A stretch of 64,000 nt of DNA from an uncultured Chlamydiae bacterium (GTDB lineage Bacteria > Chlamydiota > Chlamydiia > Chlamydiales > Parachlamydiaceae): NCBI GenBank assembly GCA_963754655.1, contig CAVWGN010000001.1:2464001-2528000 (forward strand). The letters run 5' to 3'. Below the pieces are notes generated by a model. The model did no database searches. It was given only the letters and a program-made list of their open reading frames with translations, and was not told where the DNA came from. Below, piece by piece: positions 2,266 through 62,360 of the stretch. Numbering within the stretch: position 1 is the first letter of the stretch; each line of letters starts with the position of its first letter. The position numbers and the translations under genes were made by a program.

Positions 2266-3666
2266 TTACTTAAAGGTTTCTTCTATCCAACAAGGGGAAA
2301 TTTCCTCTAATTGTTCAGGAATCCAATTCTGCTCCATAGGAAATGGATTCTCTTCGGACAAAAAGGATTCAGCAGGCAAAGATTGGTTAAAATCAGAATT
2401 CGAAAAAAGAACAGTTTGAGGTTGCTCCAATTGTGGAGAGATAAGTTCATCTGATGAAGTAGGCTGATGCTGATCTGATTGTGTAGAAGGCCTAGTTAAA
2501 GGAACCTCACTTTCATCAAGATCCCCCTCTTCCTCCACTACTTGAGGAGAATGCGTTTTTTTAATTTTTTTTAAAGGTCTTTCTTCAATAGAAAAATGTG
2601 TTTCGCTTCTCGGTTGTTTCTTATTAGAATGAGATGTTGGATTCAATATTTGCCAACGGCGTGCACATTGAATATTTGTTCTATTAGAGAAATCCTTTGC
2701 AATGAGGTCCCATTGACCTTCTCCGATGCGTTGAACAGTTTCTCTTAATTGATTATCCTCTTCTTCTGACCAAGCGTTTTGTTTGATAACTGAGCTTAAA
2801 GACTTGTTATAGTTATAGTGTTGCCTACACTGCAGATAAGTTCGACCTGGAATGTGTTTGGCTATTTCCGCCCAATTTTCTCCATACTGATCGATAAGAT
2901 CTTCCAATTGATCATTTTCCCGTGTCGTCCATCTTCCTTGTTTGATCGTTGGGTTTAAAGATAATTTATAGCGTTGCCAACAATGGTTATTCGTTCTACC
3001 TGGCATCTCTTTGGCTATTTCTACCCAATTTTCTCCATGCTGGTCGATCAGCTTTTTCAATCGGTCATCTTCTTCTTCTGTCCATTTTTTTCTTTTTGTT
3101 AGATCAGTTGAAAGACCTTTTTTGTTATTGATAGAAAAATTTAAAGATCTTTGATAGTGTGCCATACATTGAAGATCTGTCCTACCTGTAATCTGTTTGG
3201 CTATCTCAACGCATTTTGCTCCCTGCTTATCGACAAGGCCTTGTAATTGCTCCTCTTGTGTCCATTCTTTCTGTTTGATAGTCGGGCTTAAAGCTCGCCT
3301 ATAGTGTTGCCTACACTGTAGAGCAGTTCTACCTGGAATTTCTTGGGCTATTTTCGTCCATTTTTCTCCTTGCTGATCGATCAGTTTTTTCAATTTCTCA
3401 TTTTCCTCTTCCGACCACTTTCCGTGCTTAATCGTAGGATCCAATACACCTGTCCAATGAACCTCGCATTGCCTATGAGTTTTACCAGGCATATTCTCTG
3501 CAATTTTCTTCCAGTTCTCTCCATATTCTTTGATATAACCCTTCAATTGAGCATCTTCATCATCTGTCCATTTTTTCTTAGACTTTTTCATAGAACCTGT
3601 TTCTGCAACATCAATAAAAGGTGCCATGAATTGTTCAGTATAATTATTTGAAAATTCTATATTCAT
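2266..3666 (-). CDS. Eukaryotic-like protein with six tandem Myb/SANT repeats and an acidic tail
   Basis: Six W-T/S-x-E-E-D/N...G..W..IA...PGRT..QC repeats; start moved to the ATG at 3666 (MNIEF) because the upstream extension is AT-rich. Confidence 0.9.
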   Translation of the reverse strand: MNIEFSNNYTEQFMAPFIDVAETGSMKKSKKKWTDDEDAQLKGYIKEYGENWKKIAENMPGKTHRQCEVHWTGVLDPTIKHGKWSEEENEKLKKLIDQQGEKWTKIAQEIPGRTALQCRQHYRRALSPTIKQKEWTQEEQLQGLVDKQGAKCVEIAKQITGRTDLQCMAHYQRSLNFSINNKKGLSTDLTKRKKWTEEEDDRLKKLIDQHGENWVEIAKEMPGRTNNHCWQRYKLSLNPTIKQGRWTTRENDQLEDLIDQYGENWAEIAKHIPGRTYLQCRQHYNYNKSLSSVIKQNAWSEEEDNQLRETVQRIGEGQWDLIAKDFSNRTNIQCARRWQILNPTSHSNKKQPRSETHFSIEERPLKKIKKTHSPQVVEEEGDLDESEVPLTRPSTQSDQHQPTSSDELISPQLEQPQTVLFSNSDFNQSLPAESFLSEENPFPMEQNWIPEQLEEISPCWIEETFK

Positions 3667-3850
3667 AAAAAAAATCCATTTAAAATTTAATAAGTAATTT
3701 ATAAAACAAATAAAATAAACCATAATTAGTTTTAATACCACTAAAAAATTATATTAGCAATTAATTATTTTTTTTGACAAAATCCATTTGTTTCGATTAA
3801 CTCGCTTTTAGCATAGGAAGTATTTTGAACCTTTAAAATAGGGAGATAGG

Positions 3851-5457: not shown

Positions 5458-7299
5458 TTAAGAAGCAACCGGGAGCGTTTTATCTTGCCGAATATCAAAT
5501 TCCAGCTTCCACTTACGTCCATCGGAAGCCACGCACCACAGTTCTAATACTCCCAATTCGGTTACCTTAGACTTCAATTTGACCCGCACGGTTTTGCCAT
5601 CGCCGTCGCCTTTATCTAAAAGCGTCTCGATGGGATGCAGCTCGGTGAGCTCTTGTTTCCAATTGCGGACCATCGCCCCTACACTTGGCTCCTGGCCATT
5701 TGATAATTTTGGCGTGGCATGACTGAAAAATCGGAAAGTGGATTGCTCGCCCAAGACAAGGGCAAACTCTTGATTGTCCAATTCGCGCTCTTCCCCTTCT
5801 TCTAATCCAAAGGGAACAATGCAAACAGCTCGTAAAGGAGGGCTGATTCCAGGCACTGCAGGAGCCGCTTCTTCAACGCCGACAAAATAGCTGCGGCTTG
5901 TTCCGCTGCGAATACGCACAGCATGTCCTTGACGAGCTAAACCATAATAAGCGGCTCCCCGGCTGACCGCATAGTCGTAATCAGCACCCGCTAATTCTTT
6001 CACAACCGGCTTTTTAAGCTTTTTGGCCCAGCCATTGAGAAGCGTCATCAGTTGTTTACGAATGGCGGCAGCTTTGAGGGTGCCTCCATTGAACAACACA
6101 GCGGTAGGCAACACAAATTGATCCATTCGGCCGTCATCTGACTCTCCTGTCATAGACAAGAATTTTGCCAATTGGCAAGAAATGCGCGCATCTTGGACAT
6201 AAGGTAAACCAATTTGTTGAATCCCCACACGCCGCTCTGTTGGTGAGCGCTCGTCAGGAGCCACCAGTGGAATGAAGCCATCGATGACAAAACGTCGTAC
6301 TTCTTCTTGTGTCAACTCTGCCTTAAGAGTATTGCCAATCAGACGACTTCCACGGCCCAATACAGTCACATCGACGCTTTTAGGAGACTCTTCTCCCATC
6401 AATTTCTCCTTCGCTTGCCGACATTGATGCACAAGCACTTGGAGCTGCCAATGATCTAAATTGTGTCCTTGATCTTCAAGCTTTTGTTTAACTAGGTAAG
6501 CAAGCCCTAAATCAATATTATCTCCTCCTAAAAGCAAATGGGCGCCTACTGCTTGACGCTTGAGTTGCAAATTCCCCTCTTCTTCTTCCACAGCAATCAG
6601 ACTAAAGTCGGTTGTTCCTCCCCCAATATCGATGACCAAAATGGAGTCGCCCACTTTCAACTGCTCGCGCCATTCATCGGCATGCGCATGTAACCAAGCA
6701 TAAAAGGCTGCTTGGGGCTCTTCTAAGAGCACGACTTCGGGATAGCCTGCTTGTTCTGCCGCTTCTTGTACGAGCTGCCGAGCGCTGGGATCGAAAGAGG
6801 CTGGCACAGTCACTAGCACCTTTTGACTTCCAAAAGGCGCATCGGGCATGGCGGCATCCCAAGCTTCGCGCAAATGACGCAAAATTTCGGCGCAAGCCTC
6901 CAAAGGACTCATTCGATTACCCCCTTCGTCGGTCTCTAAAGGTAAAAGTTTTTCGCGTCGATTAATTCCTGGATGACAAAGCCAAGACTTCGTAGAAGCG
7001 ATGAGATGAGTGGGAAGCTCAGCGCCACGATCTCTTGCATAGGTTCCAATGGCAAATGGGCGCTCTTGATTCCAGGGAAGCTCCGCAACTTTATTTTTAA
7101 GTTCTTCAGGCAAAGGATAATAGATAAAAGATGGCAATGAAAAAGAAGTCCCTAACATTTGCGCAGCCATAGTTTGAGCAATGGCAACTTGCTCCAAAGA
7201 AGGGCGTTGCTTATCTTCTACTTGCATGGGCGTATAAGCCATCGTGCAATTGGTGGTTCCCAAATCGATGCCTATAATATAAGAAGCGCTACTCATCAT
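5458..7299 (-). CDS. Hsp70-family (DnaK-related) ATPase
   Basis: GIDLGTTN, TVPASF, EPQAA, DIGGGTTD and LFNGG motifs; non-canonical C-terminus. Confidence 0.9.
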   Translation of the reverse strand: MMSSASYIIGIDLGTTNCTMAYTPMQVEDKQRPSLEQVAIAQTMAAQMLGTSFSLPSFIYYPLPEELKNKVAELPWNQERPFAIGTYARDRGAELPTHLIASTKSWLCHPGINRREKLLPLETDEGGNRMSPLEACAEILRHLREAWDAAMPDAPFGSQKVLVTVPASFDPSARQLVQEAAEQAGYPEVVLLEEPQAAFYAWLHAHADEWREQLKVGDSILVIDIGGGTTDFSLIAVEEEEGNLQLKRQAVGAHLLLGGDNIDLGLAYLVKQKLEDQGHNLDHWQLQVLVHQCRQAKEKLMGEESPKSVDVTVLGRGSRLIGNTLKAELTQEEVRRFVIDGFIPLVAPDERSPTERRVGIQQIGLPYVQDARISCQLAKFLSMTGESDDGRMDQFVLPTAVLFNGGTLKAAAIRKQLMTLLNGWAKKLKKPVVKELAGADYDYAVSRGAAYYGLARQGHAVRIRSGTSRSYFVGVEEAAPAVPGISPPLRAVCIVPFGLEEGEERELDNQEFALVLGEQSTFRFFSHATPKLSNGQEPSVGAMVRNWKQELTELHPIETLLDKGDGDGKTVRVKLKSKVTELGVLELWCVASDGRKWKLEFDIRQDKTLPVAS

Positions 7300-7304
7300 A
7301 TCCT

Positions 7305-7796
7305 CTAAGATTTAATTTCTACTTCTGCCGGACAGATGACGTCCGGTGTTTGCTCACCTGTTTTTTTAGGTAGCGAGCGCTTTTGAGCCCTCCATCCGCG
7401 ATGAACTAATGTTCCCGTGAAGGGAGGTTCGCCCTTGATTTTTCCCACCACTTTAATTTCAGCTGGATTATAACCTTTAGGAACTTGAACAGTCGATCCC
7501 TCTTGTTCGTCTCTCAAAGGGCGAATAGTCACAAGCTCTTCAATGGCTTGAGCACAATCTTGATGAATTTTCCGCACAGCAGCGCCCACTTGTGCATCAC
7601 TAAAGGCGCTAATCTCTTCTTTTAAAAAATCAATTAGACGACTTGATTGTTGAAGATAATGTAGCAAACGCAGATGCGATTGATCTACCCCTTCTATCTG
7701 TTTAGATGTGAATGCCTTTTCTTCCACAAATTGCTGCGCTTTTTCAGGCTCTTTAAAAGCCTTGATAAAAGCCTTAAATGCTAATCCTAATCCCAT
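7305..7796 (-). CDS. DUF2760-like protein
   Basis: LQQSSRLIDFL, DAQVGAAVR, LVHRGW and PAEVEI motifs; adjacent to the Hsp70-related gene. Confidence 0.8.
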   Translation of the reverse strand: MGLGLAFKAFIKAFKEPEKAQQFVEEKAFTSKQIEGVDQSHLRLLHYLQQSSRLIDFLKEEISAFSDAQVGAAVRKIHQDCAQAIEELVTIRPLRDEQEGSTVQVPKGYNPAEIKVVGKIKGEPPFTGTLVHRGWRAQKRSLPKKTGEQTPDVICPAEVEIKS

Positions 7797-33817: not shown

Positions 33818-34018
33818 CGCGTTTTATCCTTATATCACTTATCCTTGTTCAACAGCACAAGTTTAGGCTGGACTGTCGGTCCTCGTAAATGGAATCAGAT
33901 TTGAAACTGAAAAAACCATAGAAATAAGAAACCAATAATCACTCATCATTATTCTTCTATGAACAAATAATAGGTGATAAGATTTATAGCAAATGTTTTC
34001 TATTATGGAGATAAGATA

Positions 34019-35840
34019 ATGAAAACGCGTGAAGAAGTGCCTTTAAATGATCGATGGAATGTCGAAGCTCTTTATCCCAATCAAATCGCCTGGGAACAAG
34101 CATTCAAAACCTTCGTTCCTCATCTTCAACAAACTCCTCATTGGCCAGCCCTGCAAGCTTATCAAGGAAGTTTTGAGAAGGGTCCCGAACAGGTTAAAAA
34201 AGCGCTTGATCTCATGATGGATATTGATCGAGAACTCTCTAAACTTTATACCTATGCTCATTTACGCCACGATGAAGATATCACCAATCCTGAATTTAAA
34301 AAGAGCTATGAGCAAATTTTAACTCTTGCCCACGCTTTTGCTCAAGAAACGGCTTGGTTTCAACCTGAATTAATGGCACTATCTGACGCTCTTTTGAGTC
34401 AATATCTCGCCTCCCCTCTTCTTGCTGATTATCATTTTTACTTAGAAAAAATGATTCGCATGAAAAAACATACGCTATCACCTGATAATGAGAAATTGAT
34501 GGCCTTTGCAGGGCAAGCCCTCCAAACGTCCTATAAAGCCTTTAGTGCAATTAATGATGCCGATTTTAAATTTGAGGCGGTCTTAGACAGCCAAGAAGAA
34601 TCCAAGCCTCTGTCGCATGCCACTTATGGAATTTATATTCGTGATCAAGATCGCCTTTTGCGTGAACATGCCTTTAAACAGTATCACCGCCAATATTAAT
34701 TCTTATGAAAATACCCTGTGCGAACTTTTGACAGGTCAAGTGCAAAATCATCTTTTTCAAGCTCGTTCACGCCACTTTTCTTCGTGCTTAGAAGCCGCTC
34801 TATTTCCCAAAAACATCGACACTTCTGTTTATCATTCCTTAATCCAAGCTGTTCATGAACGCCTCGATGTCTTGCATCGCTATATGCAACTCCGCAAACG
34901 CATTTTAGAAGTGAATGAATTGCATTTGTATGATGTTTATGTGCCCTTGACTTCTGCTGTCGACATTCGCATGTCCTATGTAGAAGCCGAAACACTTGTG
35001 ATTGAATCAGTGGCTCCTTTGGGATCTGAATATCAAGAGTTTCTCAAAAAAGGATTTCAGGAACAGCGCTGGGTTGATCGCTATGAAAACCAAAATAAAC
35101 GCTCAGGTGCTTATTCTAGCGGATGCTTTGATAGCATGCCTTATATTCTCATGAACTATAAGAACCTTTTGCGTGATGTGTTCACTCTAGCGCATGAAGC
35201 AGGTCACAGCATGCATAGTCTTTACAGTCGTAACACACAACCCTATCAATACAGCGATTATCCCATCTTTCTGGCTGAGGTCGCCTCAACCTTCAATGAA
35301 GATCTTCTGACCCGCTTGCTTATTAATCGCTGTCAAGATCCTCACGAGAAAATTTTTCTCCTCAATCAAAAAATTGAAGATATTCGAGGAACCCTTTTCC
35401 GCCAAACAATGTTTGCTGAATTTGAACTGCTCATTCACCAACATGTTGAACAAGGAACTCCCTTGACTCCCCAACTCCTCAAACAAGAATATCGACAACT
35501 CAACCACACCTATTTTGGGCCTGCTACCTTTATTGATAAAGAAATTGAGATCGAATGGGCACGTATTCCTCATTTCTACTACAATTTTTATGTTTTCCAA
35601 TATGCAACAGGAATCAGCGCCGCTTTAGCTCTCGCAGAAAAAGTCGTTAAAGGCAATGAACAAGACCGTGCAGCTTATCTCTCTTTCTTAAAAGGAGGAT
35701 CAAGCCAATATCCCATTGAGATGTTAAAAATGGCCGGCATAGACATGACATCTCCTGCACCCGTTAAAGCAGCTATTCAAACCTTCGATCAACTCTTGAC
35801 TGAATTAGAACAACTGCTTCATCAAACGACAAAGAGCTAA
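34019..35840 (+). pseudogene. pepF: Oligoendopeptidase F split by a 1-nt insertion near 34697 (or sequencing error)
   Basis: N-half ends QYHRQY*, C-half continues NSYENT; HEAGH zinc motif; WARIPHFY. Confidence 0.85.
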
Positions 35841-46424: not shown

Positions 46425-48179
46425 TCAACGGTAAATTCTTGCTCCTTTTGGTAATTCAATTAATCGTGGTAGATTAGAGCATCCGCGGTAGTTAATCTCT
46501 TGCACCTTTGGTACCTGAGGGAGGCTTTGCAGCTTATCGCAATCGCTGCAGTTAAGCTTTTGCACATTTGGCAGCTCAAGCAGGCTTTGCAGACTAGAGC
46601 ATCCGCAGCAGTCAAGCTCTTGCACATTTGGTAGCTCAGGTAGGCTTTGCAGATTAGAACATCTGTTGCAGTCAAGCACTTGCACATTTGGCAGCTCAGG
46701 CAGGCTTTGCAGATTAGAGCACCAGCTGCAGTTAAGTTTTTGCACGTTTGGCAGCTCAGGCAGGCTTTTCAGATTAGAACATCCGCAGCAGTTAAGTTTT
46801 TGCATGTTTGGCAGCTCAGGTAGGCTTTGCAGACTAGAGCATCCGCTGCAGTTAAGCTCTTGCACATTTGGAAGCTCAGGTAGGCTTTGCAGATTACGAC
46901 ACAAGCTGCAGTTAAGCTCTTGCACATTTGGCAGCTCAGGCAGGCTTTGCAGATTAGAGCAATCCCAGCAGTAAAGCCTTTGCACATGTGGCAGCTCAAG
47001 CAGGCTTTGCAGATTAGAGCATCCGCTGCAGCTAAGCTCTTGCACATTTGGCAGCTCAGGTAGGCTTTGCAGACTAGAGCATGCGCAGCAGTCAAGCTTT
47101 TGCACATTTGTTAGCTCAGGCAGGCTTTGCAGACTAGAGCATCCGCTGCAGTTAAGCTTTTGCACATTTGGCAGCTCAGGTAGGCTTTGCAGACTAGAGC
47201 ATCCGCTGCAGTTAAGCTCTTGCACATTTGGCAGCTCAGGCAGGCTTTGCAGACTAGAGCATCCGCAGCAGTCAAGCTTTTGCACATATGGCAGCTCAAG
47301 CAGGCTTTGCAGATTAGAGCATCTGCTGCAGTCAAGCTCTTGCACATTTGGCAGCTCAGGCAGGCTTTGCAGATTAGAGCAATCGCAGCAGTAAAGCCTT
47401 TGCACATTTGGCAGCTCAAGCAGGCTTTGCAGATTAGAGCATCTGCTGCAGTCAAGCTCTTGCATATTTGGCAGCTCAGGTAAGCTTTGCAGATTAGAAC
47501 ATCCGCTGCAGATAAGCCTTATGAGACTACTTGCCTGACCGGGCAAATTTCTTATTTTATCCGATTTAATCATTAATTGATTAAGATTTGGACACTTTTT
47601 AAATAATTCTTCAATGTCGCTTTCCTCTACATCCGGAAATTCCCTTAGGTTTGCTCCTGTCAAACCATAATCGATCGCATACTGAACAGCCTCTTTTGCA
47701 GTGTTGCATCTATATTTTTTAAGAGAAACAAGCTGCTCGCTAGCCCATTCTTTTTCCTCATTTTTTGCAATCTCGCTCAATTGCTTGGAAAGATGCATCT
47801 TTTCCAATCCACTTTGAACTCCTCCCTTTTTATAAGGAATTTCAGAATCGCGTGGAGGAATATAAGAATAGATTTTCCTCCATAATTCTTCTGGCAATTG
47901 AGAAAGCTCGTTAGAGAACACGTTCTCAGGTTTTGGCTCAGTGTCGTTATTTGCAGGTGAATTGGGATTGACATAAGGAGGAAGATCTAATTCCTCGAGA
48001 TCTAATTTTTTCCCTTTATACTGTCGATAAATAAAAAATAGAGCTGTGATTGCACCAAAAATTGCAAAAACAACAGCCGCAATTTTTGCATATTTTTGAG
48101 TTGCTTCTGAAAAATAATTGCTAGTTGTCAAATTGCTTTTTAACTGTTGAAGATTAGAAGGAATAGATGGGAACATCAA
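46425..48179 (-). CDS. TM-F-box-LRR protein, type A, about 18 repeats, with C-cap
   Basis: TM KIAAVVFAIFGAITALFFIY; F-box-like LSQLPEELWRKIYSYI; 20-aa LQSLPELPNVQxLxCxxCxN repeats. Confidence 0.9.
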   Translation of the reverse strand: MMFPSIPSNLQQLKSNLTTSNYFSEATQKYAKIAAVVFAIFGAITALFFIYRQYKGKKLDLEELDLPPYVNPNSPANNDTEPKPENVFSNELSQLPEELWRKIYSYIPPRDSEIPYKKGGVQSGLEKMHLSKQLSEIAKNEEKEWASEQLVSLKKYRCNTAKEAVQYAIDYGLTGANLREFPDVEESDIEELFKKCPNLNQLMIKSDKIRNLPGQASSLIRLICSGCSNLQSLPELPNMQELDCSRCSNLQSLLELPNVQRLYCCDCSNLQSLPELPNVQELDCSRCSNLQSLLELPYVQKLDCCGCSSLQSLPELPNVQELNCSGCSSLQSLPELPNVQKLNCSGCSSLQSLPELTNVQKLDCCACSSLQSLPELPNVQELSCSGCSNLQSLLELPHVQRLYCWDCSNLQSLPELPNVQELNCSLCRNLQSLPELPNVQELNCSGCSSLQSLPELPNMQKLNCCGCSNLKSLPELPNVQKLNCSWCSNLQSLPELPNVQVLDCNRCSNLQSLPELPNVQELDCCGCSSLQSLLELPNVQKLNCSDCDKLQSLPQVPKVQEINYRGCSNLPRLIELPKGARIYR

Positions 48180-48704
48180 GGCCTCTTATTGTTTAGTGAC
48201 GAAGTTGTAAATTTAATTAAAAAAAACAATTTTTAAATTACATTTTTTGAAAGTTTAATTAATTATTAAATTAATTTCAATTTAATTTATAATATTTTCC
48301 AGTCAATACGCAGTTACGCAATGTAATCGATTTAAAGAAATTCAATGATGCTCTAAGCAGCGTTAACTGCCTACACATCAAGCTTAAGCTAAGAGAGGAA
48401 ACCAGGCGGAGATATTATCAAAAGTTGTTGATTTTTAGAATAAGGAAAGCATAACCTCAATACATTTTCGACAATTAATCAAAAATTTCAAAAAGAGGCA
48501 ACGCCATAAAAGAGAGTGTCATAAGACCAGCGTGTTTTGTCCTAATAGGATATGAATGAAGAATGCTTGCAAGTGAATATGCCACAATTTCTCTTGTAGT
48601 CTTTCAGACTACGATAGGAGTGTGTCTTTTTCCCAGGCCGCTGGCTTGGGCTATTTCACTTTAGAGCCCTTCAGGCTCAAAACGCCTTGATTAGCCAGCC
48701 TAGA

Positions 48705-48851
48705 GCCGGGACTTAACAAAGAACTTTTTTGGGCTTGATATTCTTCATGTCAATTTAACAACACCCCGCCTGTAACAGGCTTTAAAGGCATACTTCCCGA
48801 AAATGACGGGAAAAACATCAAAGCCCAAAACAGTTCTTTGTTAAGCCCCGG
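48705..48851. repeat. Hairpin repeat, family 2
   Basis: CCGGGACTTAACAAAGAAC...GTTCTTTGTTAAG(C/T)CCCGG; also at 50360-50508, 57535-57680 and 58048-58196. Confidence 0.9.
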
Positions 48852-48868
48852 TCATAGGCTAGGAAGGA

Positions 48869-50192
48869 GATTGTGTAAAAAATTATGTGCAAAAAAAGGT
48901 CATGGTAAGATGATCTCTTATTAACTACAAAAAGAGGTATACCATGACCAAAAAGTATTCTATTGAGAAAAACAAATTATCTAAAGAAGTTATTGAACAA
49001 GATGTTGATTTAATGAAGTCTCTTATGAAAACTGCTCTCGAAAATTTTTTAGAAGCCGAAATGATCGAGACTTTGGAAGCAAATAAGAGTGAAAGATCCA
49101 AAGAAAGAAAAGGCTATAGAGCAGGTTATTATACAAGGCACTTAGTGACGCGAATAGGCAATATAGAGCTAAAAGTACCAAGAGACAGAGAGGGAATGTT
49201 TTCTACCGAGCTTTTTGAACGATATGAAAGATCGGAAAAAGCATTAGTATCAGCTCTAGCAGAAATGTATGTCCAAGGAGTATCAACCAGGAAAGTGAAG
49301 GCAATCACAGAAGAACTTTGCGGACATGAATTTTCAGCGACGACAATAAGCAACATCAATAAGAGCTTGGACGAGGACTTAAAGCAGTTTGCAAATAGAA
49401 AATTGACAGAAGTTTATCCTTATCTAATTGTAGATGCTCGTTATGAGAAAGTTAGAGAAAATGGGATAGTAAAATCGCAGGCTATATTAATTGCAGTAGG
49501 TGTGAATGGAGAAGGTTACAGGCAAGTATTAGCAGTGGAAATTGCAAATCGAGAATCTCACAATAGTTGGAAAGATTTTCTATTGAGATTGAAAGAAAGA
49601 GGATTAATAGGAGTTGAGTTGATTATTAGTGATGAGCATGCAGGGCTTAGGAAAGCGATAATGGAAGTATTTTATCAAATCCCTTGGCAAAGATGTTATG
49701 TTCATTTCTTAAGAAATGCAATTGATTATTTACCAAGAAAAGCAAACGACGATTGCTTACAAGAATTGCGATGGATCTATGATAGAAAGGATATTAAAGA
49801 AGCCAAAACAGATTTGAATATGTGGCTAGAGAAGTGGATGATGAAGTATCCAAAGTTATGTACATGGGTGGAGGAAAATATTTTTGAGACATTAACGTTT
49901 TACCAGTTTCCAAAACAACATCATAAGCATTTAAAAAGTTCGAACTTACTCGAGAGAGTAAATGAAGAAATTAAGAGAAGAACACACGTTATTAGAATTT
50001 TTCCAAATGAAGAGAGTTGCTTAAGATTGATATTAGCAATTGCAGTTGAGGTTCATGAGGGATGGGTAGATAAAAGATATTTAAATATGGATCTATTAAA
50101 AGAGCAAAAGAAACAAGAACAACTGAGCGTTGAAAAAATAGCTTAACCTAATGAGATCTCTTACCAATTTGCACATAATACTTGACACAACT
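48869..50192 (+). mobile_element. IS256-family element (transposase 48944-50146)
   Basis: VPRDR, GVSTRKV, QRCYVHF and ERVNEEIKRR motifs; imperfect TIR TTGTGT..TTATGTGCAAA; no target-site duplication. Confidence 0.93.
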
Positions 50193-50601
50193 CTAACGTG
50201 GCTCAAATTTGTTTTTTGGGTAACCGTGGGTTTCGGCTTGCGCCTACACCCACGGCTACTATCCATGCGCGGCTAACGCCGCTCGTCGCTGAGGGAAAGG
50301 ATATGGATCAAGCAACATTGCAAAAACAAAGATAAAAAATTCCGATTACCTAGCCATATGCCGGGACTTAACAAAGAACTGTTTTGGGCTTGATAATTTT
50401 TCGCGTCATTTTCGATAAATATGCCTCTAAATGCTGTTATAGGCGGGGCGTTGTTAAATTGATACGAAGAATATCAAGCCCAAAAACAGTTCTTTGTTAA
50501 GTCCCGGCCCAGAGCGAAGCGGCGTGGCGAATGAAGGCGTCGCTTAACCTAGCGCTCGCTCTTAGCTTGATCCGTATATCCTCCGAGATTAGGCTCAAAA
50601 C

Positions 50602-51712
50602 CTAATGTAACGAAGTATTAGATCTTATATACCTATCAAGAAGTGCCACAAGTTTTTTCTCATCAAAATGATTCATGATCTGAGCAATATAGAGATCGGG
50701 TCTAATCAAACACATTCCATGCTTTTCCGCACAACCATACAATTTAGAAATAGAAAAATCACTGTCTAAAATGAGAGGGCAAAGGTTTGGATGAATCTCT
50801 TTAGGACTAATCAAGAAACAAGCGATTGTGTTCGAATAATTTTGCTGAACCTTTTCTATGAGCATCTTTAACTGACTGATATCCTCTTCTTGAATATATG
50901 ATCCTGTAAATAATAAAAGATTGTGATAAGGGTGGCGAAAATAATCATAAAGGCGTTGAGAGGAATTGGCAATAGACAGATCGGGAGCTCTTTCTCCTGG
51001 CTGAGGAGCCTCTTTTTTAACGTTCGTTTGATAATCAATAATGGGACTTTGCTTATAACGAATAGCAAGTTGAGTGATCACACTACTCAATTTACTTTTT
51101 AAAAATTGACTACGCCCAATCATATTGTGGATTAAACTATCTCGAATGTTAAGCAATATAGAGTTTGAAACTGAACCCATCTTTGTTAATCTTTCTGTCA
51201 CACGGATAATGCTCTTAATGATTGGGTAGCGCTCATCTTGGTAACTTTTTAATAATAAAAAAGGATAAGCTTGACCTTTGATCACCAAAGCTAATTTCCA
51301 AGCCAGATTATAAGCATCTTGTATTCCTGTATTCATTCCTTGTCCTCCAGCGGGAGAATGGACATGAGCAGCATCGCCTGTAATAAAAACATTTCCTTGA
51401 GACATACGACTTGCAATTTCACTATGAATCCAAAATGGAGAGAGCCATACAATCGTTTTTACCTTGAAAAATCCTTTAGATCGATTATGAACAAGTTCTT
51501 GCATCTCTTCTGCAGTGGGCTTTATTTCAATTTCTTGCCTTCCCATATTCGCAATGACACGATAAAGATGATTTCCCAAGGGAAAACAAGCCAACACCTT
51601 CCCATTCCCCAAAAATCCATCTCCTTTATCTTGAGATAAGGGATTCTCTAGTATCATATCAGCTACTAAATATTCTTCTGGCAGATCTTCTCCTGAAAAA
51701 GGGATATGGCAT
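50602..51712 (-). pseudogene. 5'-truncated FAD-dependent monooxygenase
   Basis: GDAAHVHSPAGGQGMNTGIQDA and LIRPD present; N-terminal GxGxxG half absent. Confidence 0.85.
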
Positions 51713-52017
51713 TTGGTTTTGTCGTTGAAAAGTTTGCCTTGTTTCTCAAGCGACTCTCTTTTCTTTTAGGAGAAGCGCATTTGTCAGAACATCCTTATGC
51801 ATCCAATCAAATTCAAGGAAATTCCTCAATTTTTGGAATTTTTCTTGTGTGACTTGGTGCTTTAATAGGTCTTCTCGCATTTATCAAATACAAGCATATT
51901 GAAAAACAAATAGCACAAGGAAAATATCAATTTTCTATTCTGTTAGAAATCATGCTGACACTTTCAGTGCTCGCTGTTGGCATTTTTCTTATCATTTACC
52001 TTCTTGAAAGTATTTAA
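51706..52017 (+). pseudogene. 5'-truncated yidH/DUF202 copy with internal TGA
   Basis: Near-identical to 45815-46126; GGA>TGA near 51850. Confidence 0.9.
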
Positions 52018-52059
52018 GACAACCTTTCCTGAAAAATTCATCTAGCTGGATGAAGCCAT

Positions 52060-53643
52060 TCAACGGTAACTTCTTGCTCCTTTTAATAATTGAGTCAAAT
52101 TGCGCAGATTAGAGCAGCCGCTGTAGTTAATCTCTTGCAAATTTGGTAGCTCAGGTAGGCTTTGCAGATGAACGCAATCGCTGCAGTCAATCTTTTGCAC
52201 ATTTGGCAGCTCAGGTAGGCTTTGCAGATTATTACACCGATTGCATTTAAGCACTTGAACCTTTGGCAGCTCAGGTAGGCTGTGCAGATTGGGGCAAAAG
52301 TTGCATGTAAGCTCTTGTACGTTTGACAGCTCAGGTAGGGTTTGCAGCTTATCGCAATAGCTACAGTCAAGCTTTTGCACATTTGGCAGCTCAGGAGGCA
52401 GGCTTTGCAGATTATGGCAAACGTGGCATGTAAGCTCTTGTACGTTTGGCAGCGCAGGTAGGCTTTGCAGCTTGTGGCAAAATCTACAGTCAAGCACTTG
52501 CACATGTGGCAACTCAGGCAGGTTTTGCAGATTACGACAATAGGTGCAGTCAAGCTTTTTCACCTTTGGCAGCTCAGGTAAGTTTTGCAGATTATAGCAC
52601 TGGCTACAGTTAAGCTTTTGCACATTTGGCAGCTCGGGCAGGCTTTGCAAATCATAGCAATCGCTACAGTAAAGCTTTTGCACATTTGGCAGCTCGGGTA
52701 GGCTTTGCAGCTTAGAGCAAGTGCTGCAGTAAAGCTTTTGCACCTTTGGCAACTCAGGTAAGTTTTGCAGATTAAAGCATCCGCGGCAGTCCAGCTTTTG
52801 CACATTTGGAAGCTCAGGCAGGCTTTGCAGATTATGGCATCTGCGACAGTAAAGCATTTGCATATTTGGCAGCTCAGGTAGGCTTTTCAGATTAGAACAT
52901 CCGCTGCAGTCAAGCCTTATGAGACTACTTGCCTGATCGGGCAAATTTCTTATGTTATCCGATTTAATCATTAATTGATTAAGATTTGGACACTGTTTAA
53001 ATAATTCTTCAATGTCGCTTTCCTCTAAATCCGGAAATTCTCTTAAGTTTGCTCCTGTCAAACCATGATCGATCACATATTGGACAGCCTCTTTTGCAGT
53101 ATTGCATCTATATTTTTTAAGAGAAACAAGCTCTTCGCTCGCCCATTTTTTTTCCTCATTTTTTGCAATCTTACTGAATTGCTTGGAAAGATACATATTT
53201 TCCAATCCACTTTGAACTCCTCCCTTTTTATAAGGAATGTCAAACTTACGTGGAGGAATATGGGAACAGACTTTACGCCATAATTTTTCTGTTAATTGAG
53301 GGAATTCAGTGCTAGTTTCTCGTTCAGCAAAATCAGGAACAATGGGTAAACAAGCAATGTCTTGTCTCTTTCTATTTATTTCCTCTTCTTCTTGTTTGGC
53401 TGCATTGTCTAACAGATTTGCAGGTGAATTGGGATTGATATAACAAGGAAGATTTGATTCCTCGAGATCTAATTTTTTCCCTTTATACTGGCGATAAATG
53501 AAAAATAGAGCTGTGATTGCACCAAAAATTGCAAAAACAACAGCCGCAATTTTTGCATATTGTTGAGTTCCTTTTGAAAAATAACTGCTAGTTGTCAAAT
53601 CGCTTTGTAACTGTTGAAGATTAGAGGGAATAAATGGGAACAT
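52060..53643 (-). CDS. TM-(degenerate F-box)-LRR protein, type B, about 14 repeats
   Basis: Same architecture with a longer linker; QLTEKLWRKVCSHI. Confidence 0.9.
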   Translation of the reverse strand: MFPFIPSNLQQLQSDLTTSSYFSKGTQQYAKIAAVVFAIFGAITALFFIYRQYKGKKLDLEESNLPCYINPNSPANLLDNAAKQEEEEINRKRQDIACLPIVPDFAERETSTEFPQLTEKLWRKVCSHIPPRKFDIPYKKGGVQSGLENMYLSKQFSKIAKNEEKKWASEELVSLKKYRCNTAKEAVQYVIDHGLTGANLREFPDLEESDIEELFKQCPNLNQLMIKSDNIRNLPDQASSLIRLDCSGCSNLKSLPELPNMQMLYCRRCHNLQSLPELPNVQKLDCRGCFNLQNLPELPKVQKLYCSTCSKLQSLPELPNVQKLYCSDCYDLQSLPELPNVQKLNCSQCYNLQNLPELPKVKKLDCTYCRNLQNLPELPHVQVLDCRFCHKLQSLPALPNVQELTCHVCHNLQSLPPELPNVQKLDCSYCDKLQTLPELSNVQELTCNFCPNLHSLPELPKVQVLKCNRCNNLQSLPELPNVQKIDCSDCVHLQSLPELPNLQEINYSGCSNLRNLTQLLKGARSYR

Positions 53644-53679
53644 TAAGGCCTCTTATTATTTAGTGACGAAGCTGTAAAT

Positions 53680-55713
53680 TTAATTAAACAAACCATTGGT
53701 ATAGAATTTGAGTTGCAAAAATCTGCTACAGCGAAGCACTTGCACATTTGGCAGCTTAGGCAGGCTTTGCAGATTAGAACATTCGCGGCAGTCAAGCTCT
53801 TGCACATTTGGTAGCTCAGGTAGGCTTTGCAGATTAGAACATCTGTTGCAGTTAAGCTTTTGCACATTTGGCAGCTCAGGCAGGCTTTGCAGATTAGAAC
53901 ATTCGTGACAGTCAAGCTCTTGCACATTTGGTAGCTCAGGTAGGCTTTGTAGATTAGAACATCTGTTACAGTCAAGCACTTGCACATTTGGCAGCTCAGG
54001 CAGGCTTTGCAGATTAGAACATTCGTGACAGTCAAGCTCTTGCACATTTGGTAGCTCAGGTAGGCTTTGTAGATTAGAACATCTGTTGCAGTTAAGCTTT
54101 TGCACATTTGGCAGCTCAGGCAGGCTTTGCAGATTAGAACATTCGTGACAGTCAAGCTCTTGCACATTTGGTAGCTCAGGTAGGCTTTGTAGATTAGAAC
54201 ATCTGTTACAGTCAAGCACTTGCACATTTGGCAGCTCAGGCAGGCTTTGCAGATTAGAACATTCGTGACAGTCAAGCTCTTGCACATTTGGTAGCTCAGG
54301 TAGGCTTTGTAGATTAGAACATCTGTTACAGTCAAGCACTTGCACATTTGGCAGCTCAGGCAGGCTTTGCAGATTAGAACATTCGTGACAGTCAAGCACT
54401 TGCACATTTGGCAGCTCAGGCAGGCTTTGCAGATTAGAACATTCGTGACAGTCAAGCACTTGCACATTTGGCAGCTCAGGCAGGCTTTGCAGATTAGAGC
54501 AATAGCCGCAGTCAAGTTCTTGCACATTTGGCAGCTCAGGCAGATATTGCAGACTAGTGCACCAGCTGCAGTCAAGCTCTTGCACATTTGGCAGCTCAGG
54601 CAGGCTTTGCAGATTAGAGCAATCCCAGCAGTAAAGCCTTTGCACATGTGGCAGCTCAAGCAGGCTTTGCAGATTAGAGCATCCGCTGCAGCTAAGCTCT
54701 TGCACATTTGGCAGCTCAGGTAGGCTTTGCAGACTAGAGCATGCGCAGCAGTCAAGCTTTTGCACATTTGTTAGCTCAGGCAGGCTTTGCAGACTAGAGC
54801 ATCCGCTGCAGTTAAGCTTTTGCATATTTGGCAGATCAGGTAGGCTTTGCAGATTAGAACATCCGCAGTAAAGCTTTTGCACATTTGGCAGCTCAGGCAG
54901 GCTTTGCAGATTAGAACATCCGCTGCAGTCAAGCTCTTGCACATTTGGCAGATCAGGTAGGCTTTGCAGATTAGAACATCCGCCGCAGTCAAGCTTTTGC
55001 ACATTTGGCAGCTCAGGTAGGCTTTGCAGATTAGCACATCCGCTGCAGTCAAGTCTTATGAGACTACTTGCCTGATCTGGCAAATTTCTTATTTTATCCG
55101 ATTTAATTATTAATTGATTAAGATTTGGACACTGTTTAAATAATTCTTCAATATCGCTTTCCTCTACGTCCGGAAATTCTCTTAGGTTTGCTCCTGTCAA
55201 ACCATGATCGATCGCATACTGAACAGCCTCTTTTGCAGTGTTGCATCTATATTTTTTAAGAGAAACAAGCTGCTCGCTAGCCCATTCTTTTTCCTCATTT
55301 TTTGCAATCTCGCTCAATTGCTTGGAAAGATGCATCTTTTCCAATCCACTTTGAACTCCTCCCTTTTTATAAGGAATTTCAGAATCGCGTGGAGGAATAT
55401 AAGAATAGATTTTCCTCCATAATTCTTCTGGCAATTGAGAAAGCTCGTTAGAGAACACGTTCTCAGGTTTTGGCTCAGTGTCGTTATTTGCAGGTGAATT
55501 GGGATTGACATAAGGAGGAAGATCTAATTCCTCGAGATCTAATTTTTTCCCTTTATACTGTCGATAAATAAAAAATAGAGCTGTGATTGCACCAAAAATT
55601 GCAAAAACAACAGCCGCAATTTTTGCATATTTTTGAGTTGCTTCTGAAAAATAACTGCTAGTTGTCAAATCGCTTTGTAACTGTTGAAGATTAGAAGGAA
55701 TAGATGGGAACAT
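53680..55713 (-). CDS. TM-F-box-LRR protein, type A, about 23 repeats
   Basis: Same N-terminus as 46425-48179; ends FYTNGLFN. Confidence 0.9.
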   Translation of the reverse strand: MFPSIPSNLQQLQSDLTTSSYFSEATQKYAKIAAVVFAIFGAITALFFIYRQYKGKKLDLEELDLPPYVNPNSPANNDTEPKPENVFSNELSQLPEELWRKIYSYIPPRDSEIPYKKGGVQSGLEKMHLSKQLSEIAKNEEKEWASEQLVSLKKYRCNTAKEAVQYAIDHGLTGANLREFPDVEESDIEELFKQCPNLNQLIIKSDKIRNLPDQASSLIRLDCSGCANLQSLPELPNVQKLDCGGCSNLQSLPDLPNVQELDCSGCSNLQSLPELPNVQKLYCGCSNLQSLPDLPNMQKLNCSGCSSLQSLPELTNVQKLDCCACSSLQSLPELPNVQELSCSGCSNLQSLLELPHVQRLYCWDCSNLQSLPELPNVQELDCSWCTSLQYLPELPNVQELDCGYCSNLQSLPELPNVQVLDCHECSNLQSLPELPNVQVLDCHECSNLQSLPELPNVQVLDCNRCSNLQSLPELPNVQELDCHECSNLQSLPELPNVQVLDCNRCSNLQSLPELPNVQELDCHECSNLQSLPELPNVQKLNCNRCSNLQSLPELPNVQELDCHECSNLQSLPELPNVQVLDCNRCSNLQSLPELPNVQELDCHECSNLQSLPELPNVQKLNCNRCSNLQSLPELPNVQELDCRECSNLQSLPKLPNVQVLRCSRFLQLKFYTNGLFN

Positions 55714-55749
55714 TAAGGCCTCTTATTGTTTAGTGACGAAGCTGTAAAT

Positions 55750-57005
55750 TTAATTAAACAAACCATTGGTATAGAATTTGAGTTGCAAAAATCTGCTACA
55801 GCGAAGCACTTGCACATTTGGCAGCTTAGGCAGGCTTTGCAGATTAGAACATTCGCGGCAGTCAAGCTCTTGCACATTTGGTAGCTCAGGTAGGCTTTGC
55901 AGATTAGAACATCTGTTGCAGTTAAGCTTTTGCACATTTGGCAGCTCAGGCAGATATTGCAGACTAGTGCACCAGCTGCAGTCAAGCTCTTGCACATTTG
56001 GCAGCTCAGGCAGGCTTTGCAGGTTAGAGCATCCGCTGCAGTTAAGCTTTTGCACATTTGGCAGCTCAGGCAGGCTTTGCAGATTAAAGCATTCGTAGCA
56101 GTTAAGCTCTTGCACATTTGGCAGCTCAGGCAGGCTTTGCAGATTATAACATCCGCTGCAGTCAAGTTCTTGCACATTTGGCAGCTCAGGCAGGCTTTGT
56201 AGATTAAAGCACTTGCTGCAGTTAAGCTCTTGCACATCTAGCAGTTCAGGTAGGCTTTGCAGACCAGAACATTCGCTACAGTTAAGCTCTTGCACATTTG
56301 GCAGCTCAGGTAGGCTTTGCAGATTAGCACATCCGCTGCAGTCAAGTCTTATGAGACTACTTGCCTGATCTGGCAAATTTCTTATTTTATTCGATTTAAT
56401 TATTAATTGATTAAGATTTGGACACTGTTTAAATAATTCTTCAATATCGCTTTCCTCTACGTCCGGAAATTCTCTTAGGTTTGCTCCTGTCAAACCATGA
56501 TCGATCGCATACTGAACAGCCTCTTTTGCAGTGTTGCATCTATATTTTTTAAGAGAAACAAGCTGCTCGCTAGCCCATTCTTTTTCCTCATTTTTTGCAA
56601 TCTCGCTCAATTGCTTGGAAAGATGCATTATTTCCAATCCACTTTGAACTCCTCCCTTTTTATAAGGAATTTCAGAATCGCGTGGAGGAATATAAGAATA
56701 GATTTTCCTCCATAATTCTTCTGGCAATGGAGGGGGCTCGTTAGAGAACACGTTCTCAGGTTTGGCTCAGTGTCGTTATTTGCAGGTGAATTGGGATTGA
56801 CATAAGGAGGAAGATCTAATTCCTCGAGATCTAATTTTTTCCCTTTATACTGTCGATAAATAAAAAATAGAGCTGTGATTGCACCAAAAATTGCAAAAAC
56901 AACAGCCGCAATTTTTGCATATTTTTGAGTTGCTTCTGAAAAATAATTGCTAGTTGTCAAATTGCTTTTTAAATGTTGAAGATTAGAAGGAATAGATGGG
57001 AACAT
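55750..57005 (-). pseudogene. TM-F-box-LRR type A, about 10 repeats, with 1-nt deletion near 56761
   Basis: GGTTTGGC here versus GGTTTTGGC in paralogues; split into ORFs 56628-57005 and 55750-56751. Confidence 0.85.
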
Positions 57006-57534
57006 TAAGGCCTCTTATTGTTTAGTGACGAAGTTGTAAATTTAATTAAAAAAAACAATTTTTAAATTACATTGTTTGAAAGTTTAATTAATTCTTAAAT
57101 TAATTTCAATTTAATTTATAATATTTTCCAGTCAATACGCAGTTACGCAATGTAATCGATTTAAAGAAATTCAATGATGCTCTAAGCAGCGTTAACTGCC
57201 TACACATCAAGCTTAAGCTAAGAGAGGAAACCAGGCGGAGATATTATCAAAAGTTGTTGATTTTTAGAATAAGGAAAGCATAACCTCAATACATTTTCGA
57301 CAATTAATCAAAAATTTCAAAAAGAGGCAACGCCATAAAAGAGAGTGTCATAAGACCAGCGTGTTTTGTCCTAATAGGATATGAATGAAGAATGCTTGCA
57401 AGTGAATATGCCACAATTTCTCTTGTAGTCTTTCAGACTACGATAGGAGTGTGTCTTTTTCCCAGGCCGCTGGCTTGGGCTATTTCACTTTAGAGCCCTT
57501 CAGGCTCAAAACGCCTTGATTAGCCAGCCTAGAG

Positions 57535-58196
57535 CCGGGACTTAACAAAGAACTTTTTTGGGCTTGATATTCTTCATGTCAATTTAACAACACCCCGCCT
57601 GTAACAGGCTTTAAAGGCATACTTCCCGAAAATGACGGGAAAAACATCAAAGCCCAAAACAGTTCTTTGTTAAGCCCCGGTCATAGGCTAGGAAGGAAAT
57701 GCTTCTGGCAAACTCCAGAAGCTAAATTTGTCGCTCAAGCGGCGTTAGCCGCGCATGGATAGTAGCCGTGGGTGTAGGCGCAAGCCGGAACCCACGGTGT
57801 ATGGTAAAAAAAATGAAGCCACGTTAGTGGCGTAGGAAATTGATGGTGGAGCAATGTTTATTTAAACGAATGCTACGCCACTAACGTGGCTCAAATTTGT
57901 TTTTTGGGTAACCGTGGGTTTCGGCTTGCGCCTACACCCACGGCTACTATCCATGCGCGGCTAACGCCGCTCGTCGCTGAGGGAAAGGATATGGATCAGG
58001 CAACATTGCAAAAACAAAGATAAAAAATTCCGATTACCTAGCCATATGCCGGGACTTAACAAAGAACTGTTTTGGGCTTGATAATTTTTCGCGTCATTTT
58101 CGATAAATATGCCTCTAAATGCTGTTATAGGCGGGGCGTTGTTAAATTGATACGAAGAATATCAAGCCCAAAAACAGTTCTTTGTTAAGTCCCGGC
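57535..58196. repeat. Nested palindrome, family 2
   Basis: Two mutually inverted ~147-bp hairpins flank a central IR at 57738-57971. Confidence 0.88.
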
Positions 58197-58289
58197 CCAG
58201 AGCGAAGCGGCGTGGCGAATGAAGGCGTCGCTTAACCTAGCGCTCGCTCTTAGCTTGATCCGTATATCCTCCGAGATTAGGCTCAAAAC

Positions 58290-59400
58290 CTAATGTAACG
58301 AAGTATTAGATCTTATATACCTATCAAGAAGTGCCACAAGTTTTTTCTCATCAAAATGATTCATGATCTGAGCAATATAGAGATCGGGTCTAATCAAACA
58401 CATTCCATGCTTTTCCGCACAACCATACAATTTAGAAATAGAAAAATCACTGTCTAAAATGAGAGGGCAAAGGTTTGGATGAATCTCTTTAGGACTAATC
58501 AAGAAACAAGCGATTGTGTTCGAATAATTTTGCTGAACCTTTTCTATGAGCATCTTTAACTGACTGATATCCTCTTCTTGAATATATGATCCTGTAAATA
58601 ATAAAAGATTGTGATAAGGGTGGCGAAAATAATCATAAAGGCGTTGAGAGGAATTGGCAATAGACAGATCGGGAGCTCTTTCTCCTGGCTGAGGAGCCTC
58701 TTTTTTAACGTTCGTTTGATAATCAATAATGGGACTTTGCTTATAACGAATAGCAAGTTGAGTGATCATACTACTCAATTTACTTTTTAAAAATTGACTA
58801 CGTCCAATCACATTGTGGATTAAACTATCTCGAATGTTAAGCAATATAGAGTTTGAAACTGAACCCATCTTTGTTAATCTTTCTGTCACACGGATAATGC
58901 TCTTAATGATTGGGTAGCGCTCATCTTGGTAACTTTTTAATAATAAAAAAGGATAAGCTTGGCCTTTGATCACCAAAGCTAATTTCCAAGCCAGATTATA
59001 AGCATCTTGTATTCCTGTATTCATTCCTTGTCCTCCAGCGGGAGAATGGACATGAGCAGCATCGCCTGCAATAAAAACATTTCCTTGAGACATACGACTT
59101 GCAATTTTACTATGAATCCAAAATGGAGAGAGCCATACAATCGTTTTTACCTTGAAAAATCCTTTAGATCGATTATGAACAAGTTCTTGCATCTCTTCTG
59201 CAGTGGTTTTATTTCAATTCTTGCCTTCTCATATTCGCAATGACACGATAAAGATGATTTCCCAAGGGAAAACAAGCCAACACCTTCCCATTCCCCAAAA
59301 ATCCATCTCCTTTATCTTGAGATAAGGGATTCTCTAGTATCATATCAACTACTAAATATTCTTCTGGCAGATCTTCTCCTGAAAAAGGAATATGGCATTT
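58290..59400 (-). pseudogene. 5'-truncated, frameshifted FAD monooxygenase (second copy)
   Basis: Near-identical to 50602-51712, with indels near 59205-59225. Confidence 0.85.
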
Positions 59401-59703
59401 GGTTTTGTCGTTGAAAAGTTTGCCTTGTTTCTCAAGCGACTCTCTTTTCTTTTAGGAGAAGCGCATTTGTCAAAACATCCTTACGCATCCAATCCAATTC
59501 AAGAAAATTCGTCAATTTTTGGAACTTTTCTTGTGGGCCTTGGTGCTTTAATAGGTCTTCTCGCATTTATCAAATACAAGCATGTTGAAAAACAAATAGC
59601 ACAAGGAAAATATCAATTTTCTATTTTGTTAGAGATCATGTTGACACTTTCCGTGCTCGCTGTTGGCATTTTTCTTATCATTTACCTTCTTGAAAGTATT
59701 TGA
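59392..59703 (+). pseudogene. 5'-truncated yidH/DUF202 copy
   Basis: Lacks the ANERTFLAW N-terminus. Confidence 0.85.
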
Positions 59704-59780
59704 GACAACCCTTCCTGAAAAATTCATCTAGCTGGATGAAGCCATTCAACGGTAACTTCTTGCTCCTTTTAATAATTGAG

Positions 59781-62050: not shown

Positions 62051-62058
62051 ATTGACTC

Positions 62059-62340: not shown

Positions 62341-62360
62341 TCCAATCTCCACTAAATACC

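Follow-up and report, generated by a model that had tools for sequence, protein, structure and literature searches.

Tandem Myb repeats are DNA-binding domains of eukaryotes, and the presence of six of them in a single bacterial open reading frame (ORF) raises the question of what such an array does and in which cell it does it. The ORF, P0001, lies on the minus strand of a 64,000-nucleotide stretch of DNA (the window; positions 2,464,001-2,528,000 of a 3,123,268-bp contig) from the genome of an uncultured Chlamydiae bacterium of the family Parachlamydiaceae (assembly GCA_963754655.1). A first-pass annotation described it as a single Myb mimic, probably acquired from a protist host and secreted to act in the host nucleus. 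We found instead that P0001 belongs to a species-specific family of 14 ORFs that includes a tandem cluster. With a probability of roughly 0.58, we favour the interpretation that the family encodes type III secreted, nucleus-targeted DNA-binding effectors with a layout resembling that of transcription activator-like (TAL) effectors.

The six repeats of about 50 residues were readily recovered. Pfam family PF00249 matches P0001 in six tandem stretches (E-value 1.9e-74; 246 bits, against a cut-off of 24.4), and AlphaFold2 predicts six three-helix units, five of them with predicted local distance difference test (pLDDT) values of 70-90, in a model built on six aligned sequences and having a mean pLDDT of 61.5. 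Disorder is predicted for residues 1-30, 176-192 and 345-466. Pfam found only Myb-type families in the protein, and no 33-35-residue TAL repeats. In a scan of the genome five of the repeats each scored above the Pfam cut-off and repeat 3, at 21.7 bits, below it. The regular pattern of three core aromatic residues is similarly satisfied in five of the six (W33/W52/W71, W84/W103/Y122, W135/C154/Y173, W195/W214/Y233, W246/W265/Y284 and W299/W319/W338 in repeats 1 to 6), the exception again being repeat 3, where Cys replaces the second Trp, helix 1 is short by two residues and pLDDT is lower. When compared with PDB using Foldseek, the model first retrieved DNA-bound Myb domains (mini-SNAPc/SNAPC4, 4.3e-10; c-Myb, 2.1e-8), with template modelling (TM) scores of 0.91 to T. 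vaginalis Myb2 and 0.86-0.92 to two-repeat Myb structures; by sequence, the PDB matches were SNAPC4, c-Myb and CDC5. The c-Myb-like linker noted in the initial description, LDPTIKHGKWSEEE, is present and aligns with the inter-repeat linker of c-Myb, and a 3+3 layout is indeed created by an 11-residue insert that parts repeats 3 and 4; this layout is peculiar to P0001 and occurs in no paralogue. The sequence evidence supports the assignment of these repeats to the eukaryotic type.

Inventory of the genome yielded 82 Myb matches, 81 of them above the Pfam cut-off, distributed over the 14 ORFs and one frameshifted remnant. Eight ORFs, corresponding to seven genes of which one is split by an insertion sequence (IS), form the tandem cluster at 1.212-1.229 Mb; three more lie at 1.355-1.360 Mb, and single ORFs occur at 1.633, 2.467 (P0001) and 2.583 Mb. 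The numbers of good repeats per ORF are 13, 8, 8, 9, 6, 3, 2, 9, 3, 3, 3, 5, 6 and 3 (81 in all). Members share a recognizable plan: a leader resembling MNIGISNHYTEQVSVPSI with a K-rich patch; an array in which the first repeat and the last (QRIGEGQW) are each of a type of their own and the internal ones have Tyr for the third aromatic residue; and an acidic and hydrophobic tail. Full-length open frames are retained in eleven copies. Among the damaged ones, one paralogue is divided into 3-repeat and 2-repeat ORFs by an IS607-like element (resolvase plus TnpB), one is truncated behind the array and one lacks helix 3 of the last repeat. The IS607-like element occupies C1:1224215-1226014, exactly between the two paralogue halves, and encodes a serine resolvase (1224248-1224814) and a TnpB/OrfB_IS605 protein (1225012-1226013). 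The frameshifted remnant, at C1 ~2447000-2447700 and about 17 kb before the window, carries the leader with the first part of repeat 1 in one frame and an internal repeat in another. GC content in the family is 0.34-0.38, and GC content at third codon positions (GC3) 0.28-0.37, compared with 0.40 and 0.33 in the genome (768 long ORFs); since these values are the genome's own, contamination can be dismissed, as can a very recent arrival of the genes.

A further line of evidence comes from the pattern of variation among the repeats. When 48 internal repeats from the main subfamily were aligned, hardly any variation was seen in helices 1 and 2, and entropy was greatest at columns 35, 43, 38, 52, 39 and 34. 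Eight 'hypervariable' columns initially selected carry 46 different residue combinations among the 48 repeats; because that selection was made post hoc and is circular, it was replaced by two definitions set beforehand. By the first of these, helix 3 as delimited in the AlphaFold2 model (columns 34-45), the ratio of nonsynonymous to synonymous diversity (pN/pS) is 0.75 in helix 3 and 0.39 in both helix 1 and helix 2, with comparable synonymous diversity (0.33, 0.22 and 0.32 in helices 3, 1 and 2, respectively). The second definition employs the base-reading residues of c-Myb, given in PMC3203581 as Lys128, Glu132, Asn136, Asn179, Lys182, Asn183, Asn186 and Ser187, which a profile alignment with mouse c-Myb places at columns 35, 38, 39, 42 and 43. 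These columns rank 1, 3, 5, 12 and 2 in entropy among 51 (column 43 containing 11 gaps). The nominal probability that at least four of five contact columns would fall in the top five is 9.8e-5, a figure that the kinship of the repeats prevents from being a true probability. At the contact columns pN/pS is 1.07, as opposed to 0.42 at all other columns and 0.45 in the rest of helix 3, with similar pS, and their pN was reached by only 4 of 50,000 random five-column sets. Judged from these alignments, variation is concentrated at the predicted DNA-reading face of the repeats.

Sequences flanking the array have features that would be compatible with delivery to, and activity in, a host nucleus. The leader, kept in 13 paralogues and having pLDDT below 50 over residues 1-30 of P0001, is a candidate type III secretion signal; P0001 has no signal peptide. 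The basic cluster RPLKKIKK reported at the outset is present at residues 363-370, as part of a motif, EE[RS]P.KK[FI]KK, that occurs in 10 of the 14 family ORFs, with the variants NLKKFKK and NVKKFKN in two others; in P0001 it constitutes a candidate monopartite nuclear localisation signal. The acidic, Pro- and aromatic-rich tail, also described previously, has a net charge of -19, an isoelectric point (pI) of 4.05, 10 Pro and 7 aromatic residues. Sequence searches revealed no relatives of the P0001 leader or tail beyond the source genome. In another paralogue (C1:1357556-1358785), which has three repeats, an IYPP repeat in the tail generates four PPxY motifs of the WW-domain ligand type; motifs of this sort are restricted to eukaryotes, and they point to a possible eukaryotic partner.

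The genome, an assembly of 3.16 Mb in two contigs (96.7% complete; 38.8% GC), contains genes for the export pathway that such effectors would require. A single locus carries SctU and SctV, followed by an ORF without family assignment and then by a CopN domain and a CesT-type chaperone; SctN was found at 634 bits, and two secretins (SctC candidate) and SctJ are also encoded. The sole YscJ/FliF (SctJ) match of the genome is on the 35-kb second contig (C2:15286-15837), which may be an unplaced piece of the chromosome or a plasmid bearing a secretion gene. Four TLC-type nucleotide transporters, a member of the 'Protochlamydia outer membrane protein' family, F-box, RhoGEF and DUF4116 proteins and many leucine-rich repeat (LRR) proteins are also encoded. 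This gene content is that of an obligate intracellular chlamydia equipped with genes for type III secretion, and we infer that the organism is an environmental, protist-associated member of the Parachlamydiaceae.

Under the effector interpretation, the conserved disordered leader would direct export into the host cell by the chlamydial type III system, and the K-K-x-K-K motif behind the array, along with the K-rich patch before it, would mediate import into the host nucleus. There the third helices of the Myb repeats, whose fold the sequence and the model show, would bind host DNA, and the acidic aromatic tail would recruit host transcription or chromatin factors. Because the paralogues differ most at the base-contacting positions, in addition to varying in repeat number (3 to 13), they would address different host target sequences. 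TAL effectors consist of a secretion leader, a variable number of repeats whose scaffold hardly varies apart from a few hypervariable residues, a nuclear-import motif and an acidic tail; those of Xanthomonas present the same order of parts as the Myb family and, like it, occur in multiple copies in one genome. The likeness is one of analogy, without homology: the repeats of TAL effectors have 33-35 residues whereas the Myb repeats are three-helix units of 51, and the bearer of the Myb family is a protist-associated chlamydia. The comparison could be carried further, to a programmable system, derived from the DNA-binding core of a SNAPc-type factor of the host, in which four or five hypervariable residues of helix 3 let each repeat read a short piece of host DNA and paralogues activate different host promoters through the acidic tail. 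In this extended version, which we consider unlikely, the ancestral-looking P0001 might still be aimed at promoter elements of the small nuclear RNA (snRNA) type.

Several observations weigh against the effector interpretation. The 48 repeats are kin, so that the statistics given above overstate their independence, and a pN/pS near 1 may reflect relaxed constraint instead of selection for new specificities. The column equivalent to Lys128 is occupied by Ile, Met or Leu in 22 of the 48 repeats. Repeat 3 of P0001 is degenerate. Since type III signals cannot be recognized reliably from sequence, the leader is no more than compatible with one. The family's repeats are near neutral, with a mean net charge of +0.8 per repeat (c-Myb R2 has +7), and repeats 4-6 of P0001 have a pI of 6.1; such charges fit weak or non-canonical DNA binding, or possibly a SANT-like interaction with proteins or histones. 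The last of these leads to the principal competing explanation, by which the proteins are directed at the host but are not sequence-specific activators, binding histones or other proteins as SANT domains do, or serving as decoys that vie with host Myb or SNAPc-type factors for sites or partners, with a role other than activation for the tail. To the near-neutral repeats and the acidic second half of the array it can add a helix 1 that is strongly conserved and acidic, internal repeats that score best with R1 of c-Myb and not with the repeat that determines specificity, and colinearity with a SNAPC4-like DNA-binding core in the absence of the remainder of SNAPC4. It leaves unaccounted for the location of the variation exactly on the helix 3 columns equivalent to base contacts, the net positive charge of helix 3 (mean +1.6), and the fact that the closest structures are all DNA-bound Myb domains, and we regard it as unlikely, if the foremost of the rivals.

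An intrabacterial role must also be considered, since chlamydiae do use eukaryote-like chromatin proteins internally (Hc1/Hc2), a precedent that tells against host targeting; the family would then represent nucleoid-associated or regulatory DNA-binding proteins in which eukaryotic domains were co-opted for bacterial chromatin. The lack of a signal peptide, a basic patch equally suited to DNA binding, and a conserved 5' element (described below) suggestive of co-regulation are in keeping with this idea. We nevertheless think it quite improbable: a family absent from all three congeners and from nearly all of the 150 other genomes scanned in the phylum cannot fill a core role, the PPxY motifs and the long tail, acidic and disordered, are not known to have partners in bacteria, and fourteen diverging copies, IS disruption and pseudogenes fit an effector arsenal and not a nucleoid protein. 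The further suggestion that the family is an artefact or junk, arising from eukaryotic contamination, from misassembly or as a functionless, selfish and decaying repeat family, could appeal to the broken copies (IS607-split, frameshifted, truncated, or with the last repeat partly lost). It is largely refuted, and in our judgement very remote, as the genes lie inside a 3.12-Mb bacterial contig flanked by bacterial genes, are intronless with the GC and GC3 of the genome, retain full-length open frames in eleven copies and have scaffold positions under purifying selection (pN/pS 0.39-0.42).

The origin of the array was approached through its closest relatives. Beyond the source genome the best matches are eukaryotic or metagenome proteins. 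The best named ones are plant proteins with four mid-protein repeats (198-213 bits); long proteins annotated '4R / Myb-like protein L' score 145-148 bits, and c-Myb and A-Myb at most 152 bits. A five-repeat Myb of the amoebozoan Planoprotostelium (174 bits, 37% identity) is colinear with residues 88-342 of P0001, in an alignment that covers both the last repeat and the region of the irregular repeat 3. Among solved structures, human SNAPC4 is closest in sequence as well as in fold, with matches confined to residues 50-282 of P0001 and the SNAPC4 repeat region, and nothing outside the repeats. Like P0001, proteins of the SNAPC4/4R-MYB type have Tyr as the third aromatic residue in their internal repeats and end the array with a repeat of the form G-x-G-x-W; repeat 6 in particular is similar to the last repeat of SNAPC4-like Mybs. 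Unlike them, the bacterial family has an extra N-terminal repeat, its own leader, basic motif and acidic tail, and up to 13 repeats. The 3R-Myb proteins (c-Myb, A-Myb, B-Myb and plant MYB3R) have the same fold and the LNPxxxKGxWT linker in common with P0001, repeats 4-5 of which align with c-Myb R1-R2 at 106 bits, with a partial alignment to R3. The R3 type is missing from the family, c-Myb R3 scoring worst against all three repeat profiles (36, 24 and 20 bits), and Pfam did not find the C-terminal c-Myb domains PF07988 and PF09316 in P0001. A specifically c-Myb-like character is therefore not upheld: there is no R3-type repeat, the family falls outside the 3R-Myb clade, and its best colinear matches are 4R/SNAPC4-like.

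A maximum-likelihood tree was constructed from three-repeat windows (40 rows), 14 of 43 chosen comparison proteins, including plant 4R proteins, Acrasis and Hondaea, having been dropped for want of a full-length window match. The 11 paralogue windows form one clade (support 99/98) that is not nested within the SNAPC4/4R-MYB clade, and within which P0001 is sister to the tandem cluster (97/91). Other clades unite c-Myb and MYB3R (99/94), Planoprotostelium and Basidiobolus (96/91), and a set of metagenome proteins, diatom-like by eye (97/93). The backbone is a polytomy, the colinear alignments to the Planoprotostelium protein and human SNAPC4, considered against the four-and-a-half-repeat core (Rh-Ra-Rb-Rc-Rd) of the SNAPC4/4R-MYB type, occur in two registers, and when the repeat profiles were compared one by one with 24 named eukaryotic proteins, the repeats could not be paired off cleanly. 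The metagenome matches P0121-P0127 and P0130 look eukaryotic, being Ala-rich and diatom-like by eye, with 11-12 repeats where scanned; P0008 and P0128, which have signal-peptide-like N-termini, may be other bacterial arrays. We conclude that, as far as the sequences indicate, a eukaryotic Myb core was acquired once and then expanded, and that this core was probably of the SNAPC4/4R rather than the c-Myb type. P0001 looks closest to the ancestral five-repeat layout, and would represent a diverged sister of the tandem cluster in which a five-repeat core colinear with SNAPC4-like Mybs is joined to one extra N-terminal repeat. Of the protist donor initially envisaged, sequence searches and phylogeny leave the general idea plausible but name no donor lineage, given the unresolved backbone.

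Distribution of the family is narrow. No P0001 homologue is present in any of the three congeners, two of which contain one weak repeat each by the Pfam Myb model. At E <= 0.001, some Myb match occurs in 10 of 40 other related genomes, with no more than nine per genome; at the stricter E <= 1e-6, only 5 of the 150 other high-quality genomes examined from the phylum had matches, with a maximum of seven in a genome and a top score among them of 42 bits (72 bits in the source genome), and none was present in 23 genomes of one genus with ~1-Mb genomes. A scan of the genomes of 185,579 species (one per species), made with two peptide patterns and hence of limited sensitivity, led to five confirmed loci, two of them in chlamydial metagenome-assembled genomes (MAGs). 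In one, 'Chlamydiales bacterium 38-26' (L011 362-5899), at least six small genes are clustered in tandem. Most encode one or two Myb/SANT repeats of divergent sequence, together with a short leader and basic motifs of the KRQK type; not all of these parts are present in the two shortest. The cluster looks like another chlamydial Myb-like family of independent standing. The other, a Parachlamydiaceae MAG, contains large low-complexity Myb ORFs. Myb-like families of other symbionts are distinct from P0001 in sequence, with 28-38% identity across short parts. Myb domains are accordingly rare in the phylum and in bacteria at large in both the 150-genome and the 185,579-species scans, and are not common in free-living forms.

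The species-wide scan also matched a Prochlorococcus single-amplified genome and six viral loci beyond L030-L033, none of which was accepted as a relative. A Bacilli MAG, a Lachnospiraceae MAG and the viral loci L030-L033 (of which L032 was read) were rejected as relatives, their repeats belonging to a one-Trp helix-turn-helix (HTH) class, helicase-linked or other. In the Lachnospiraceae MAG (L014 2726-4993) and on a large viral contig (L032 427-2979), helicases carry 8-12 C-terminal one-Trp HTH repeats of the form 'WTxEEDEILKKYYPxEG'. Such helicase-linked arrays form a SANT-like repeat class of phages and bacteria that is distinct from eukaryotic Myb; they score 97 bits, whereas the amoebozoan Myb scores 174.

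The features of P0001 are collected in Table 1. Its longest frame extends up to a GTG at 3741. All 13 paralogues with an N-terminus start (M-N-I/V...) at the equivalent of the ATG at 3666, and in eight of these the open frame 5' of the shared ATG is no longer than nine codons; on this comparison the true start of P0001 is the ATG at 3666 and not the GTG at 3741. Alignment of the 13 upstream regions showed the sequence AAATTT(T/A)AA some 5-20 nt before the ATG, with the AAATTT core kept in at least 11 of 13 paralogues according to the consensus line.

Table 1. Features of P0001 and its upstream region, in window coordinates; repeat borders were taken from a repeat profile (a hidden Markov model) built in this analysis. 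AF2, AlphaFold2
Feature	Position	Strand	Residues	Basis or remark
Coding sequence of Myb protein P0001, 466 residues plus stop	2266..3666	minus		start set by N-terminus common to paralogues
5' element kept among paralogues: A/T palindrome-like TTAAATTTTAA, then short purine/T stretch	3667..3695	minus		upstream alignment
N-terminal leader, hydrophilic, Ser/Asn/Thr/Ile-rich, then K-rich patch KKSKKK	3574..3666	minus	1-31	kept in 13 paralogues
Myb repeat 1, 'first-repeat' type, W-W-W	3421..3573	minus	32-82	repeat profile
Myb repeat 2, internal type, W-W-Y	3268..3420	minus	83-133	repeat profile
Myb repeat 3, degenerate	3121..3267	minus	134-182	21.7 bits, AF2, repeat profile
11-residue basic insert	3088..3120	minus	183-193	disorder at 176-192 in AF2
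Myb repeat 4	2935..3087	minus	194-244	repeat profile
Myb repeat 5, 2-residue insertion behind helix 3	2776..2934	minus	245-297	repeat profile
Myb repeat 6, 'last-repeat' type (QRIGEGQW, W-W-W)	2620..2775	minus	298-349	repeat profile
EERPLKKIKK basic motif	2557..2586	minus	361-370	EE[RS]P.KK[FI]KK in 10/14 family ORFs
Acidic, Pro- and aromatic-rich disordered tail (92 residues)	2269..2544	minus	375-466	pLDDT ~30

P0001 had been portrayed as a lone gene among housekeeping genes. Locally this holds, its neighbours being of housekeeping type (DUF1295, SufE, a cytidine-type deaminase, an ABM-domain membrane protein and an Hsp70-like protein), but genome-wide there are 13 further family ORFs. In one congener 169 bp lie between SufE and the Hsp70-like gene, and in a second the two are separated by a pair of unrelated ORFs; as the gap differs among congeners, the Myb gene, the deaminase and the ABM gene occupy a variable spot. 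The Hsp70-like ATPase (613 residues) is paired with a DUF2760 protein (5458-7796 of the window), and the pair is kept beside SufE in congeners. A search of sequencing runs listed no RNA run, the only match being one soil-metagenome DNA run containing 0.23 of the words.

Elsewhere in the window, six LRR_4 paralogues (584, 527, 677, 333, 557 and 423 residues) occupy the minus strand at 46425-63980, in a eukaryote-like LRR array that is either growing or in decay; among them lie two FAD_binding_3 C-terminal fragments (50602-51657 and 58290-59192) and, at 48944-50146, a transposase of the Mutator family. Oligopeptidase F is spread over a pair of overlapping ORFs (Peptidase_M3_N, 33974-34699; Peptidase_M3, 34617-35840) and could be a pseudogene or carry a frameshift.

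Ankyrin, LRR, F-box and SET proteins are the well-known eukaryote-like effectors of amoeba symbionts; to our knowledge, a DNA-binding array of the transcription-factor type is not among them. In the literature searched we encountered no description of Myb-domain proteins in chlamydiae (the only co-occurrence of 'MYB' denoting a culture medium), although supplementary tables of comparative-genomics studies might list the domain. Nor did that literature, including a term search of the review PMC7819608, yield any Myb-domain nucleomodulin; by that search 'Myb' appears only in a reference concerning the host target MYB30, and matches to 'SANT' are surnames of authors. Known bacterial nucleomodulins embody the concept proposed here for P0001, in which a protein secreted by bacteria acts inside the nucleus of the host. 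Myb-like transcription factors are listed among the eukaryote-like genes of Clostridia endosymbionts of termite protists in PMC10579323.

If secreted and nuclear, these proteins would mean that a symbiont directly rewires protist gene expression with DNA-binding modules borrowed from the host side, by way of a clear transfer of genes from eukaryote to bacterium followed by rapid expansion. The repeats might constitute a second natural modular scaffold for DNA recognition, with a code readable from at least 48 natural repeat variants, and the programmable version, if true, would amount to an independently evolved chlamydial counterpart of TAL effectors. For the effector biology of environmental chlamydiae, which has received little study, the family offers concrete candidates.

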